A stretch of DNA of 64,000 bases from an uncultured Holophagales bacterium (lineage in GTDB: Bacteria; Acidobacteriota; Thermoanaerobaculia; Multivoradales; UBA5704). This document shows positions 59,079 through 64,000 of the stretch, piece after piece. Numbering within the stretch: the first letter of the stretch is position 1; every line of letters begins with the position of its first letter. The notes beneath the pieces are model-generated. The model made no database searches. It saw only the letters and a program-made list of their open reading frames with translations, and had not been told where the DNA came from. The stretch lies in NCBI GenBank assembly GCA_963842525.1, contig CAWJGT010000009.1, forward strand, positions 128,001 through 192,000. Reading direction: 5' to 3'. The position numbers and the translations under genes are program-made.

Positions 59079-59333
59079 TCAGGATAGAACCTCTCTCCTC
59101 ATCTCTTCGAGGGTCAAGCTCTTGCCCATCTCAATCTCCGCCCGCGCTTTTTCGATGAGCTCTTGCAACACGCCGCTGGTACTCAAGGCCCAGGACTCAG
59201 GATCAACATCCTTCAGCGACACGAGGGCAGCAACAGGCTTGCCGGCTGCTGTAAGCACCAGGATCTCATCGCCCAATTCGTCGGCATATGACGACAACGG
59301 GCGGGAGGCTGTCGCAAGCTCGATCTTTTTCAT
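59079..59333 (-). CDS. Phd-like antitoxin
   Basis: LT..GKPVAALV; coupled to the upstream RelE. Confidence 0.65.
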   Translation of the reverse strand: MKKIELATASRPLSSYADELGDEILVLTAAGKPVAALVSLKDVDPESWALSTSGVLQELIEKARAEIEMGKSLTLEEMRREVLS

Positions 59334-59610
59334 AACTGCACCTCCTCGCCGTCGATCCACACGCTGTTCCCCTTCTTCTGCCCGACAACCAAGACGCGGA
59401 CTTCCTTCTCTTGTGTCTCTACATCATAGAATACTCTCAGATCACCAACGCGCAGCTCCCACGGTGCGAGAGGGTTGGGCCGCAGGAGCTTGCGGTTCCT
59501 CGTTTCGACCGTAGGCTCATGCGACAACTGCTGCTCGATCGTGTCGAGAAGCAGTGCACGCTGGCTGAAGACGGCTCTGCAACAGCCCGAATCGACGACA
59601 CCGCGCGATG
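59330..59610 (-). pseudogene. RelE-family toxin, 5' part damaged
   Basis: RNRKLLRPNPLAPWELRVGDLRVFYDV. Confidence 0.75.
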
Positions 59611-60079: not shown

Positions 60080-61141
60080 TTATTCAGGTGGCTCGGTCTC
60101 ACGCCTGCCTGCGACCAACGCTAACGCACGGCTGTGTGCTTTCTGGTCTCCTCGGATTGCATCGCCGAGCACTTTTCGCCGCTGGTCATCATATAAATAA
60201 ACGCGGACAGTGTTGGTTTTATAACCCGAGAGCTCCGCCACTTCCTCAATGGAAAGACCACGCTCAGGGTCACCAAGCATCTCGTCTTCGAGTCGGTGGA
60301 TGGTGAGAACATCCCGACTGGAGAAATCTCTCAATTCAGCCTCATCCTCCACCGCTTCCCAATCGTCGCGAACAGGCGCCTCCCGGGTGACCTCCGGGTC
60401 CAAAACCAGCAACCCAGGGAGTTCTACCTTCTTCACACCAATCTGGTAGCGCTTGCAGATGTCGACTAGCTTTTCTCCGTCAATCAGATAAACCACCCGC
60501 TGGTTTTGTCCTGGTCTCGCCTCATTTTGGGCGTCGGCACTGAATCGGCCGGTTGTCACAATGATCGCTGTATCTTCCTCGCCCTTCACGCCCCGCATCA
60601 TGCGGACCTCGTCGACTGGAACAGTTCGAGCGGTCCATCTTTTTGCGGATACGATGGCTCGGGCGCCCACGACACCTCGCTGGTATACCACGCGCGCATC
60701 TGCACCACCATCGCGAGTAGCTTGCGTGATCTGAACGTCCTGGAATCCCAGCGCATCGAGAACGCGAGTGAGGAATGTGGACTCGAACGTGCGCCAGTCC
60801 ATCCGCTGCAGCCACGCTCGAATCTCCTCGCCGACAGCCTCGTTCTGCTGATGAACACGGGCTTCGATGTCGCCTGCATTCGATCCCCGAGCGAATTCGC
60901 TCCCCTCGCGAAGCCGAACCCATCCGCGCTCTTCGCCGTCGCGGGACGTTATGAACCGAGTGCGTTCGCCGAGCTCTTCGAGGCGCTGATTCTCCGATTG
61001 AATCGCCAGGTACAGGGACTGGTAGGGAAGGTCGGGGTACTTCTCTTCGCGCCGAATTTCTTCGAGAAGTGCCTGGAGGCGCGCTCTCCCGCCAAGAGCC
61101 TGGAGCCGCCTCTCGATTCGATCTACTCGCCTCTCCGCCAT
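60080..61141 (-). CDS. Mrr-like (type IV) restriction endonuclease
   Basis: FE..L..LGF, TRDGGAD...SAKRW, IIVTTG.FS, LIDGEKL; lower GC. Confidence 0.85.
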   Translation of the reverse strand: MAERRVDRIERRLQALGGRARLQALLEEIRREEKYPDLPYQSLYLAIQSENQRLEELGERTRFITSRDGEERGWVRLREGSEFARGSNAGDIEARVHQQNEAVGEEIRAWLQRMDWRTFESTFLTRVLDALGFQDVQITQATRDGGADARVVYQRGVVGARAIVSAKRWTARTVPVDEVRMMRGVKGEEDTAIIVTTGRFSADAQNEARPGQNQRVVYLIDGEKLVDICKRYQIGVKKVELPGLLVLDPEVTREAPVRDDWEAVEDEAELRDFSSRDVLTIHRLEDEMLGDPERGLSIEEVAELSGYKTNTVRVYLYDDQRRKVLGDAIRGDQKAHSRALALVAGRRETEPPE

Positions 61142-61469
61142 CGGGTTCTCAATCCTATTCCAGTCGGGCCCCTGCCCTCTGCGGCTAACGACACGGAAGA
61201 CCTCCAAGGTCCAGAATAGGCCTAACTTACGCCCCCTGACGGGTTGATGTCAACGACGACCGCTCCCCACTCCTCCTCCCGCCCCCCGAACCACCAAAAA
61301 AGATAGGCGGCTAGCCCAGGCGTCTCCAGGCCCCTGTCGGGTCGCCGGCTGGCGCTCCGCCCGCGCCTGTCCCCTGCCCTCTCGACCCACCCCTGTGGCC
61401 CCGCCCCCGCCCTCCCCGTGAGGCCCCTGTGCGGCCCCAGGTCGTGCGACCGTGCCAAGGCCCAGCCGG

Positions 61470-61610
61470 CGGCTCCGCTTCGAGATTCTGGGGTGGGCGA
61501 GGGGATGCTGCAGGATCAGGGTGATCGCCTTTTGGACCTCGGCAGCGAATTCGGCGCCGAGGCCGGGCCGGCAACCTTCGTAGTAGTCGACCGCCGCCTC
61601 CAACTCCGCC
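61470..61610 (-). pseudogene. ParE toxin remnant
   Basis: AVDYYE..RPGLG.EF..EV..AI..I..HP. Confidence 0.65.
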
Positions 61611-61659
61611 CTGGCTGGCGCCAGGAACGGACATAGGTGCCACCCATTAGAAGGCTCTT

Positions 61660-62080
61660 GTCAACGACCCACACGTCTCCCACCCGGGAGTGTTCGTTTC
61701 AAGAACGGCTCGTTCCGGCAAGATGTGCTCCCGTGTCGGGTTTGCGCGCCCGTAGTCTCGCTGTGCTTCAGGTGCGGAGATCCGCACCAGCCACCCATCG
61801 GGATCAAGGCGGGTCGGAGCCGGTGACGGCTCCGACCCGCCCCTGGCACGGTTTGCGTGCCCCCAGAAAATCTTCGGTTCCAGGTTCGTGTCCAAGGGTT
61901 CAGGACAACCAATAAGGCTACCTCCGCCCCCCCGAAAGGTTCAGAGGTGCCAGCACATTCGGGCTCACGACCTGGGCGCATCTCCAACAAAAGAGCCAAA
62001 AACGGTGGAAGACAGGGGCCAATCAGCCGTAGAGGGTTCTTTCGCCCAGCACCTAATTGCAGGCTCCCTGTCTTCCACCT
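61660..62080 (-). ncRNA. Predicted bridge/seek RNA region
   Basis: Perfect 14-bp stem (62004-62017/62066-62079) enclosing two segments that match the element's flanks; further hairpins at 61771-61788 and 61808-61841. Confidence 0.75.
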
Positions 62081-62083
62081 GAA

Positions 62084-63100
62084 TCAACCAAAAGCTTGCG
62101 CCGACCTGAACGGCACCTGGTCGCGCAGGATGTAGTACGCGGCACGAGTCAGCTTGTTCGAGATCGTCCGCAGGGCCACCAACTCGTTGGTCCTGGCCCG
62201 CTTGCGCTCGTAGAGACGCTTGGCGAGGGGCTCGAACCGAATGGCGAAATGTGAGGCCTCCATGAACGCCCAGGACAGGTACGGGTTGCCATTGCGTACG
62301 TTGCCGGAGCCCTTGACCTTGCCGTTGCTGAGGTGCTGACTGGGTACACAGCGGCAGTAGGAGGAGAAGTGGCCCGCCTCGGCAAAGCGAGCGATGGAGC
62401 CGGTCTCGTACATGATCGTCAGGGCAAGGGTCAGACCGATGCCGGGAATGCTCTCGAGCAGCTCGAACTCGGGCCTCAGTCTGGCCTGTTTGAGAACAGT
62501 TTTCTCGATGCCAGAGATTTGGTCTTTCAGCGTGCGGGCGATCGCCAGGCTGCTCGTGATCGTCAAGGCAATATGTGGGTCTGTGAATTGCTCCTCGACC
62601 TGCTCGGCAGTCATGCGCTTGAGCTCGCTGAGAGGAACTTGAGCTCCGGTGTAGCGCGAGAAGACGTTTTTGACGCTCAGCAAGCTGGCGGTGCGCTGTC
62701 GCACCAGAAAGGCCCGGCGGCGCAGTAGATCCCGCACCGCGCGCTCCTTTTTCGGATAGATGTGGCCGGTGGGCAAAATGTTGAGGTGGAGTAGACGCGC
62801 CAGCCATCGCGCGTCATGGCGATCATCGACGTACTTCAACCCCTCGTACTGGCGAACTGCGGAGGTGTTGACCAAGCGAACCTCGTAGCCGGCCTCCATG
62901 AGGCCATCCACCAACCAGTACCAGTTGAAGGTGGACTCCACGGCGATCGCCTGGATCTGCTCCCGGAAGGGCTCCAGGGCTTCCAGGGCCGCCTCCAGAC
63001 GGTTGGGCAACCGACGGCTGAGGACAGCTTGTAGTTGTTCGTTCATCACCACGAGATAGCTGTTGGTTGAATGCAAGTCGATTCCGCAGTACAGTCCCAT
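62084..63100 (-). CDS. IS110-family transposase/recombinase
   Basis: GIDLH, VESTFNWYW, DD.HDA (DEDD RuvC); SIPGIG, S.G serine domain. Confidence 0.95.
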   Translation of the reverse strand: MGLYCGIDLHSTNSYLVVMNEQLQAVLSRRLPNRLEAALEALEPFREQIQAIAVESTFNWYWLVDGLMEAGYEVRLVNTSAVRQYEGLKYVDDRHDARWLARLLHLNILPTGHIYPKKERAVRDLLRRRAFLVRQRTASLLSVKNVFSRYTGAQVPLSELKRMTAEQVEEQFTDPHIALTITSSLAIARTLKDQISGIEKTVLKQARLRPEFELLESIPGIGLTLALTIMYETGSIARFAEAGHFSSYCRCVPSQHLSNGKVKGSGNVRNGNPYLSWAFMEASHFAIRFEPLAKRLYERKRARTNELVALRTISNKLTRAAYYILRDQVPFRSAQAFG

Positions 63101-63219
63101 ACGCTCCTCCTTTCAGGGATTGGTCTCCCGACGAGCCTATCGCGGCTCGTCAGAAGGGAGGAGCCTTCTAGAGGATCATCAGCCGAACAGTGTCTGGCGC
63201 CTCGGGCGGAGCAGCTCAG

Positions 63220-63653
63220 CACGAGATCGAGGTGGAGGACTGCGTGGTGGCAGCGCTAAGCTTCTCCAGTGGCGCTCGCGGCACGATCGTCGCCACCACC
63301 GCGGCCTCGCCGGGATTCCCGCACCGCGTCGAGGTCTATGGCAGCCGGGGCGGGGCGCAGATCGAGGGGGACGCGCTGGTCCGCTGGGAGGGCGATGCGC
63401 GCCCGGGATCCGCCCCCAGGCACCTGCGGCGGCACCTGCCGCGGTGGCCGCGGGATCGGGGGCCAGTCCCACTGGCATCGGCACCCTCGGGCACATCCTC
63501 ATCGTGCAGGATTTCGTCGCCACGATCCGCGAGGGTCGCGACCCGCTGGTGGACGGAGTCGAGGGTCGCCGATCCCTGGCGCTGGTCCTCGCCATCTACG
63601 AGGCCGCCGGCCTCGGCGGCGAGAATCGAGGGGTTACCCCAGAAACTTTCTGA
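63220..63653 (+). pseudogene. Gfo/Idh/MocA oxidoreductase C-terminal remnant
   Basis: EVED, R.EVYGS.G, H...VQDFV..IR.GR.P.V...EG.RSL..V.AIY; frameshifts. Confidence 0.7.
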
Positions 63654-64000
63654 GGTACCTCGGAACCCTTCTGAGGTGCTGGAAAAAAGTTTTGGGGTAC
63701 CTCAGAAGTTTTCCGAAGTACCCCAGAAACTTTTCGAGGTACCTCGGAACCGTTCTGAGGTACTGGAAAAAAGTTTTGGGGTACCTCAGAAGTTTTCCGA
63801 GGTACCTCAGAAACTTTTCGAGGTACCCCGGCACCGTTCTGAGGTACTGGAAAAAAGTTTTGGGGTACTTCAGAAGTTTTCCGAGGTACCTCAGAAACTT
63901 TTTGAGGTATCTCGGCACCGTTCTGAGGTACTGGAAAAAAGTTTTGAGGTACCTCAGAAGTTTTCCGAGGTACCTCAGAAACTTTTTGAGGTACTTCGGA
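63630..64000. repeat. 21-bp tandem repeat with 84-bp higher-order period; runs off the window edge
   Basis: Cycle GAGGTACCTCGGAACCGTTCT / GAGGTACTGGAAAAAAGTTTT / GGGGTACCTCAGAAGTTTTCC / GAGGTACCTCAGAAACTTTTC. Confidence 0.92.

Follow-up and report, generated by a model that had tools for sequence, protein, structure and literature searches.

A second loop in the predicted bridge RNA of an IS1111-group element shares the scaffold of the target-binding loop and appears to follow the same target

The window analyzed here, a stretch of 64,000 nucleotides from an uncultured Holophagales bacterium (positions 128,001 to 192,000 of contig CAWJGT010000009.1, assembly GCA_963842525.1), contains an insertion sequence (IS) of the IS110 family, IS1111 group, whose 443-nt 3' end represents a predicted three-part bridge (seek) RNA, the structure being supported by the fold z-score and by covariation. 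The second part of this RNA, loop 2, is a structural paralogue of the target-binding loop, loop 1, and in related elements its bases next to the core dinucleotide track the DNA that flanks the element. Comparison of these sequences suggests that loop 2 is probably a flank- or junction-reading, enlarged-handshake module of the three-part RNA that addresses the same target as loop 1. A preliminary description of this DNA had regarded it as a guide for an independent second target. All coordinates are those of the 64-kb window, and the IS, its transposase gene and the RNA are all read on the minus strand.

The genome (9.9 Mb, 34 contigs) contains four full copies of the IS, all of which lie within TTCGGC-TG-[IS]-TG-GCAC(C/T)(T/C)A, with the flank of one of them, copy D, read after its tandem 3' repeat. 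Because the left end (LE) of relatives starts with AAGATC or AGGATC, the core dinucleotide is the first TG, and the target is therefore TTCGGC-TG-GCACCTA. Loop 1 comprises the following elements:

62004-62079, minus strand: loop 1, the target-binding stem-loop, with its stem formed by 62079-62066 and 62018-62004
62055-62049, minus strand: right-target guide TAGGTGC of loop 1, followed by TGG at 62048-62046
62029-62022, minus strand: left-target guide CGGCTGAT of loop 1, consisting of CGGC, the core TG and AT, the latter being the first two LE bases, followed by TGG at 62021-62019

The 5' word of loop 1, read as its reverse complement, gives the right flank (right target, RT), and the 3' word corresponds to the left flank (left target, LT) followed by TG and AT. 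A protein-based search of genome contigs yielded 549 relatives in 595 candidate stretches; the best 80 of the 549 were kept, with transposases 48-83% identical and hosts ranging from Acidobacteriota to Gammaproteobacteria, including Pseudoalteromonas. Removal of duplicates left 60 distinct elements, which were tabulated, and the left flank was readable in 36 of the 60. Matches between words and flanks were assessed with 10000 shuffles of the word-flank pairing, plain and, for loop 2, also stratified by flank class. For loop 1, the mean match was 4.43/5 on the right and 3.86/5 on the left, compared with 3.08 and 1.72 after shuffling, and none of the 10000 shuffles reached the observed values. 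The covariation is seen in individual elements, with GAAGCGC accompanying GCGCTTC in L039 and CAAGTGC accompanying GCACTTG in L024, and with the left words of L026 to L028 reading GAGGG-, GCGCG- and GAGGC-TG. The two strands of loop 1 thus match opposite strands of the target and covary with it, as is expected of a bridge RNA, and loop 1 is the target-binding loop. The order of the strands, in which the match to the top strand precedes that to the bottom strand, is the one described in the text on IS1111 seekRNAs (PMC11187229).

Immediately downstream of loop 1, the second loop is organized as follows:

61880-61976, minus strand: loop 2, with the outer stem CCCAGGTCGTG (61976-61966) / CACGAACCTGG (61890-61880)
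61959-61953, minus strand: AATGTGC within the loop 2 5' strand AGCC-CGAAT-GTGC, with the right-type (R) word GTGC at 61956-61953 and TGG following at 61952-61950
61950-61916, minus strand: inner hairpin of loop 2
61916-61908, minus strand: 3' strand of loop 2, CTTATTGGT, followed by a core-like TG at 61907-61906
61919-61912, minus strand: AGCCTTAT, the 3' guide of loop 2 in the preliminary description, followed by TGG at 61911-61909

Loops 1 and 2 are built on a common scaffold that consists of an outer stem, GAGCC, free bases, the R word, TGG, an inner hairpin, CC, free bases, the left-type (L) word and TG. The TGG after the R word is present in 57/60 elements in loop 2 and in 54/60 in loop 1, and the TG after the L word in 60/60 and 59/60, respectively. 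The TGG forms the 5' half of the inner stem, and the GAACC(C) of loop 1 forms the 3' half; in loop 2, the homologue of this GAACC(C) is TAGCC. Thus, the proposal that loop 2 is a second guide-bearing module on the scaffold of the target loop is borne out, as is the presence on the minus strand of every word that had been quoted for it, including TGATCC at 61806-61801 and ATGGGTG at 61798-61792. Two of the features by which the scaffold had been recognized did not prove valid, however: the TGG that trails the 3' word of loop 2 in the window recurs in only 2/60 elements, and the GAACC of loop 2 belongs to a hairpin loop that is variable. An RNA structure of the 3' region beyond chance is evident from the folding of the 461-nt 3' region (z = -5.38; none of 100 shuffles folds as well), and in a MAFFT/RNAalifold structure alignment of 39 of 56 distinct sequences, up to 21 of the 39 carry compensatory double changes at a single pair of the loop 2 outer stem. 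Loop 2 aligns in all 56 distinct relatives examined, so that it is not the extra loop it had been taken for.

At its 3' end, the 5' word of loop 2 has four bases complementary to positions 1-4 of the right flank. Position by position, the word matches the right flank at frequencies of 0.79, 0.95, 0.83 and 0.84 (backgrounds 0.45, 0.85, 0.44 and 0.81), and from position 5 on, the match of the 5' strand to the flank is at background; positions 5-8 include the AAT of the guide in the preliminary description. Overall, the R word matches at 3.85/5 versus 3.04 for shuffled pairings (0/10000), and the difference persists when shuffling is stratified by flank class (3.85 versus 3.66; 22/10000). Flanks starting with GCAC are accompanied by ...GTGC-TGG, and a large group with ACCC... 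flanks by ...GGGT-TGG; four separate lineages with TC... flanks (L046, L106, L129 and L130) carry ...GA-CTGG; L102, with a GCGTGC flank, carries GCACGC-TGG, and L100, with GCC..., carries GGC-TGG. On the other side, the loop 2 L word matches left-flank positions -1 to -5 at 0.77, 0.49, 0.71, 0.46 and 0.54 against a background of 0.25-0.36, which amounts to 3.0/5 versus 1.58 for shuffled pairings (0/10000) and versus 2.44 under stratification (3/10000), with n = 36. In several elements, the loop 2 L word equals that of loop 1 (TCGAC-TG in L016, GTAC-TG in L046, GCGCG-TG in L027 and ATTG-TG in L129), and in 5/36 elements it is closer to the flank than the loop 1 word. In the window copy, the R word shares GCAC, that is, right-flank positions 1-4, and the L strand UUGGU-UG is identical to TCGGC-TG except for two U-for-C differences, both of which would form U·G wobbles with the bottom strand. 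The earlier statement that loop 2 matches neither the target nor the donor therefore holds for the donor but not for the target. Given that the R word can pair with right-flank positions 1-4 and the L word resembles the left flank followed by TG, loop 2 would re-read the core-proximal bases of the loop 1 target.

Several observations weigh against such a role of loop 2. The shuffle tests are inflated by kinship among the elements, and the registers (offset 0 or 1) as well as the regular expression used to find the LE were chosen by the analyst. When switches of the first flank dinucleotide were mapped on a FastTree phylogeny of 58 transposases, loop 2 followed the switch in about 2.3-2.8 independent pairs, remained unchanged in 1.7-5.2 and opposed it in none (sign test p 0.25-0.5); on the same tree, loop 1 followed in 3-6 pairs. 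A lineage of the L039 type in genome G058 reprogrammed loop 1 to TAGCC-TG-GCGCTTC and left loop 2 in its old state, which fits the new flanks at 3/5 and 3/5 positions. This lineage is represented by at least five distinct full copies (L039, L052-L054 and L117) and a sixth without the tip of the right end (RE; L055); as it multiplied despite the mismatches in loop 2, transposition does not require a complete match of this loop. Finally, L135 has no R-word match, and, as discussed below, no guide complementary to the LE top strand (GGATCAT-like) was found in the 3' region.

Under the main rival explanation, loop 2 is a protein-binding scaffold only, a duplicate of the target loop that docks a second recombinase dimer, and its likeness to the target results from common descent or occasional gene conversion from loop 1, with no pairing to DNA. 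We consider this explanation unlikely, albeit the most serious of the alternatives. It is favored by the stronger conservation of the scaffold compared with the "guide" positions, by the spread of the L039 lineage, by the lack of significance in the tree-based test, and by the report that, for ISEc11, an 82-nt RNA with the target loop alone suffices for movement (text of PMC11187229). However, deep and repeated concordant switches, such as those of the four lineages that changed to TC, of L102 to GCGTGC and of L100 to GCC, are hard to obtain by descent alone. Furthermore, the match is confined to the four core-proximal nucleotides and the invariant TG of the L strand (60/60), which is the pattern expected of a pairing register, and gene conversion was not seen where it could be tested, namely, in L039 versus L016. 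Should loop 2 nevertheless be a docking scaffold only, guide-like loops could not be read as extra targets from a single sequence.

A donor guide lies farther downstream, where the preliminary description had correctly placed donor-like words:

61787-61807, minus strand: loop 3, single-stranded donor guide, consisting of TTGATCC, C, GATGGG, TG, GC and TGG
61743-61980, minus strand: donor-side multi-loop domain, closed by a long-range helix between UGCG (61980-61977) and CGCA (61746-61743)

In loop 3, TTGATCC has the same sense as A-TGATCC of the LE, GATGGG corresponds to the RE end, TG to the core, and GC to the first two nucleotides of the right flank. The motif is present in 108/112 transposase-bearing entries, 270-450 nt past the stop codon. 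In all 13 elements with a variant loop 3 word at positions -1 to -3 (ATGAG, ATGTG, ATGGC or ATGGA), the RE is changed likewise; in L046/L104 (loop 3 ACGGG) and some Pseudoalteromonas-type rows, the difference lies farther from the core and the RE is still ATGGG. The two bases after the loop 3 TG equal right-flank positions 1 and 2 in 52/60 elements, with 8 exceptions, the handshake pairs seen being GC, AC, TC, CC and GA. Loop 3 is a left-donor guide with the core and a handshake dinucleotide, in the sense in which these terms are used in the text of PMC11208158. On the LE side, loop 3 offers only the same-sense TGATCC word, which correlates loosely with the LE; GGATC alone does occur, in the hairpin after loop 3. 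With no guide for the LE top strand detected, the donor side is accounted for only in part. Within the donor-side domain lie loop 2, two hairpins, loop 3 and the hairpin 61788-61771, and each of its 4 closing pairs shows double compensatory changes in 2-7 of the 39 aligned sequences (RNAalifold). In many IS1111 bridge RNAs, the donor-binding bases are described as sitting in a multi-loop (text of PMC11208160), and the donor-side domain fits this arrangement.

It is very improbable that loop 2 is an ordinary donor loop that pairs with LE and RE as in IS621. Loop 2 does occupy the position of the donor loop, being the second internal loop on a scaffold like that of the target loop, as described for IS621 (text of PMC11208160), and the 3' strand of the window copy, ATTGGT-TG, resembles the RE end AATGGG-TG at 4/6 positions. 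The ends, however, are nearly invariant (ATGATCCTC / CTAATGGGTG), whereas the loop 2 words differ on one strand (GAAT, TCAG, TAAG, CGAC) as well as on the other (TTGGT, TCGAC, CTCCC, ACGGC); because identical ends accompany different words, loop 2 does not follow the IS ends. Among the 60 elements, loop 2 does not covary with LE or RE, it contains no complement of either end, and the guide that does covary with the RE sits in loop 3. That loop 2 is not the donor loop had already been proposed in the preliminary description.

The same description had predicted a tandem guide array, with loop 2 directed at an independent second target, AATGTGC-CA-TAAGGCT (AGCCTTA-TG-GCACATT in gene orientation). 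Apart from the target-loop scaffold, the one feature in its favor is that positions 5-8 of the 5' strand and the outer part of the 3' strand vary freely and match nothing identified. The predicted site has no match in the 9.9-Mb genome at ≤2 mismatches, and its 13 matches at 3 mismatches are a number that shuffled patterns also yield (5-40). Moreover, the register assumed for the 3' guide was incorrect, the conserved core TG lying 5 nt further 3' in 60/60 elements, and the register-corrected site TATTGGT-TG-GCACATT fares no better (0 at ≤2 mismatches and 9 at 3, compared with 2-21 for shuffled patterns). None of the four full copies and none of the end fragments is located at such a site; all lie in the loop 1 target. 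The inner guide positions of loop 2 track that same target, loop 2 is universal in the clade rather than an addition, and neither the assumed 3' register nor the trailing TGG is conserved. The existence of a second target is thus largely refuted. The preliminary description had named two outcomes that would speak against its reading, covariation of loop 2 with the IS ends, or invariance of loop 2 with no insertions at the predicted site; insertions at that site are indeed missing, but loop 2 neither covaries with the ends nor is invariant, and instead follows the target that loop 1 already reads.

There is equally little to commend the possibility that the region acts as DNA, serving inside the element as a pseudo-end or a recombination site through which the 3' part would move as a module, in the manner of ISPpu9/MITEPpu9: the tandem 316 bp of copy D are joined at the loop 2 TG, L045 in G208, a derivative without a transposase, retains the LE along with loops 2 and 3 and the RE, solo RE fragments occur, and there is the ISPpu9 precedent (text of PMC12288879), but only one such junction was observed, the solo fragments start at varied places other than loop 2, the fragment C9:824534-824758 ends 10 nt from that TG, and the covariation in the stems argues for selection on RNA structure.

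If loop 2 is the flank- or junction-reading module that we favor, its 5' strand would base-pair with right-flank positions 1-4, and the donor-side domain would combine three elements: the RE guide of loop 3 with its right-flank handshake, the loop 2 R word, and the loop 2 L word with TG. Such a set would be a better fit to RE-TG-RT and LT-TG-LE, the junctions of an integrated copy, than to the junction of a circle, and loops 2 and 3 together might allow the donor-side recombinase dimer to hold the element junctions along with the flanking target halves. The arrangement could serve to excise an integrated copy or to transfer its junctions directly or, alternatively, act as an enlarged handshake that would stabilize the state after strand exchange during insertion. 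Published accounts, as far as their text covers these points, describe several relevant properties of related systems: the donor loops of IS621 read 2 target bases through "handshake guides" (PMC11208158), its excision substrates bind across both loops and the handshake bases tune both directions (PMC13626964), IS1111 donors must have correct target flanks to move, with the role of the long seekRNA left open (PMC11187229), and, according to a preprint, direct transfer of the left donor (LD)-RT junction needs the donor-side RNA (10.1101/2025.10.25.684509). The need for flanks in IS1111, the excision and handshake results for IS621 and the LD-RT transfer make the junction-reading model plausible. 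More tentatively, and with somewhat less confidence than for loop 2 itself, the whole clade, from Acidobacteriota to Pseudoalteromonas, with transposases ≥48% identical, might use a three-site bridge RNA in which loop 2 reads the target halves at an integrated copy, so that the donor-side dimer would recognize junctions and not only the circle junction. If true, the RNA would encode a license to excise the element or to transfer its junctions directly, and the "long seekRNA" part of IS1111 elements, so far unexplained, would acquire a role.

The comparison with characterized systems, limited to what the text of the cited reports describes, places these features in context. IS621 (Durrant 2024, PMC11208160; Hiraizumi 2024, PMC11208158; Hiraizumi 2026, PMC13626964) likewise combines a DEDD recombinase with a structured RNA from the noncoding end, the strands of an internal loop pair with opposite target strands around the core dinucleotide, and a donor-side guide includes the core, with two handshake bases reading the other DNA partner. 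In contrast to IS621, the RNA here lies 3' of the gene, the order of the loop strands is reversed, and the core reads TG instead of CT. The RE guide is located in a single-stranded segment of a multi-loop, not in the second internal loop; the latter here follows the flanks of the target (over 4 nt plus up to about 5 nt) and not the donor, and a guide complementary to the top strand of the LE was not detected. The IS1111 seekRNAs of ISEc11, ISPa11 and ISKpn4 (Siddiquee 2024, PMC11187229) belong to elements that share the subterminal repeats and the long 3' noncoding region; their stem-loop is about 80 nt long with the top-strand match first, compared with 76 nt here (62079-62004), a longer form exists, and the donor needs target flanks. 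The transposase of ISEc11, the nearest tested IS1111 element, is about 26% identical to the one in the window, and inspection of the ISEc11 (L139) 3' end showed it to be much shorter, with no evident loop 2 or loop 3, whereas here a conserved domain of ~240 nt with two more guide-like elements follows 3' of the target loop. ISPpu9/MITEPpu9 (Pares-Guillen 2025, PMC12288879) resembles the present case in that full copies are accompanied by 3' modules in partial, tandem and solo form, but it belongs to the IS110 group and its module has end-like boxes of its own; here, there is one tandem junction and no repeated end boxes at the module. For CazIS110-1 (Sun 2025, bioRxiv 10.1101/2025.10.25.684509), the complex is reported to act on the integrated junctions LT-right donor (RD) and LD-RT, and the dependence of LD-RT transfer on the donor-side RNA fits a donor-side domain that reads RE and the right flank; that RNA is an ordinary two-loop one, and the link to loop 2 is an inference made here only. 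A second loop that tracks the target was not found described for RNAs of the IS1111 type in the literature text, to which the survey was confined; the figures and supplements in which IS1111 structures are drawn may already show one. Bridge recombinases are being engineered as programmable genome editors, and nearly all mechanistic work concerns the two-loop IS621/ISCro4 type. For IS1111, donor recognition, the need for the right flanks and the job of the longer RNA form are listed among the open points (text of PMC11187229), and a conserved loop 2 along with a separate RE guide and handshake offers a concrete hypothesis that can be tested by mutation. If the hypothesis holds, such systems would have to be altered at three RNA sites to be reprogrammed, rather than at one or two.

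The remaining features of the element are the following:

61641-63179, minus strand: whole IS, 1539 bp with one core TG counted, the LE starting with ATGATCCTC at 63179 and the RE ending with CTAATGGG-TG at 61641
63187-63180 and 61640-61634, minus strand: flanking target halves TTCGGC-TG and GCACCTA, respectively
62084-63100, minus strand: intact gene for the transposase (bridge recombinase) of 338 aa, with Pfam domains PF01548 and PF02371
63161-63170, minus strand: left subterminal inverted repeat TAGAAGGCTC, 10 bp, reverse complement of 61657-61648, 9 nt inside the end
61648-61657, minus strand: right subterminal inverted repeat GAGCCTTCTA, 10 bp, 5 nt (plus TG) inside the end
61661-61666, minus strand: candidate -35 box TTGACA of a putative circle-junction promoter, just upstream of the right subterminal repeat

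The 338-aa protein contains the DEDD_Tnp_IS110 (PF01548; E 1.5e-14) and Transposase_20 (PF02371; E 5.4e-18) domains. The noncoding ends are strongly unequal, with 443 nt on the 3' side (from the stop codon at 62084 to the RE end at 61641) versus 79 nt on the 5' side (63179-63101), and the layout of ends and flanks is identical among the four full copies in the genome. The LE and RE subterminal repeats covary with each other in relatives. Subterminal inverted repeats and a long 3' noncoding end are given as hallmarks of the IS1111 group (text of PMC11187229 and PMC11208160), and the element has both domains, subterminal repeats within 7-17 bp, a long noncoding region 3' of the gene, and orientation-specific insertion at one sequence with duplication of the core dinucleotide alone (4/4 full copies); it is an intact member of the IS1111 group of the IS110 family. 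An Rfam search of 61000-63400 matched no family. At the DNA level, relatives of the 3' region were found in 16/92 genomes of the family and 21/300 of the order, with the genome analyzed here (G000) itself counted. Joining of the ends would bring TTGACA (61661-61666) to within 17 nt of GATGAT, which spans the core G and the LE (63174-63180); TTGAC is found at the same spacing from the RE end in most relatives, and in gammaproteobacterial relatives GATGAT is replaced by GATAAT. This TTGACA/GATGAT pair looks like a promoter that would form only once the ends join in a circle. Four DNA metagenome runs from one sample yielded neither a circle junction nor an empty site, the contigs being short and fragmented.

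The four full copies in the genome are 100, 99.7, 97.2 and 94.8% identical, and are accompanied by a 5' part, a middle fragment and three 3' fragments. An exact empty target site was not found in the 9.9-Mb genome, but a numpy Hamming scan detected 9 empty look-alike sites at 1 mismatch, compared with 0-3 for shuffled patterns, and the target thus belongs to a small repeat family. Copy D (G000:C9:241642-243514; L004/L044), located outside the window, consists of the full IS with its last 316 bp repeated once more in tandem, and is bounded as a whole by normal target halves. At the junction, ...CTAATGGG-TG-TGCTGGCACC..., the RE is joined at the TG within AA-TG-TGCTGG of loop 2. Guided insertion into loop 2 was considered as the origin of this junction and rejected, as the pseudo-site CCCGAA-TG-TGCTGGC matches no L or R word; copy D may reflect off-target recombination or ISPpu9-like modular movement, and a single event decides neither. 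Two further loci, G000:C3:1636199-1637215 and G000:C9:824534-824758, are complementary pieces of one IS copy with the same break in the transposase gene, and both abut the inverted-repeat end ACAATTAGAACTGCGGGG of a different mobile element; since this end is found at both breaks, a second IS split the copy, and the halves are now apart. The C9 piece does not share the loop 2 breakpoint of copy D, given that it ends 10 nt further on and that its other end was made by the different IS. Many solo RE fragments (L008, L009, L025, L030, L035, L036 and L043) have a TG-GCACCT half both upstream, at a distance of a few to tens of bases, and directly downstream, and this doubling of the target half suggests decay inside clusters of target repeats. 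L045 (G208:C182, at about locus 1250-1700 in minus orientation) and L051 represent a transposase-less derivative that begins with the LE-like ATGATCTTC and retains loops 2 and 3 and the RE, whereas loop 1 is missing; it resembles a miniature inverted-repeat transposable element and would need to be moved in trans.

The surroundings of the IS in the window include several other genes and repeats. Just past the right flank, a 375-aa open reading frame (ORF; 60080-61207, minus strand) contains the Mrr_cat restriction-endonuclease domain (PF04471, E 8.4e-22). On the other side, the C-terminal part of a GFO/IDH/MocA oxidoreductase (63190-63630, plus strand; PF22725, E 7.4e-9) begins at the left flank of the IS, and the gene may have been truncated there. 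It is followed by a tandem array of about 62-bp units (…GGTACCTCAGAAACTTTTCGAGGTACCTCGGAACCGTTCTGAGGTACTGGAAAAAAGTTTTGG…) at 63630-64000, which continues to the end of the window. Small overlapping ORFs are located at 59079-59527 and 61250-61603, both on the minus strand; by eye, they resemble toxin-antitoxin pairs, with a presumed likeness to the Phd/YefM and RelE/ParE types.

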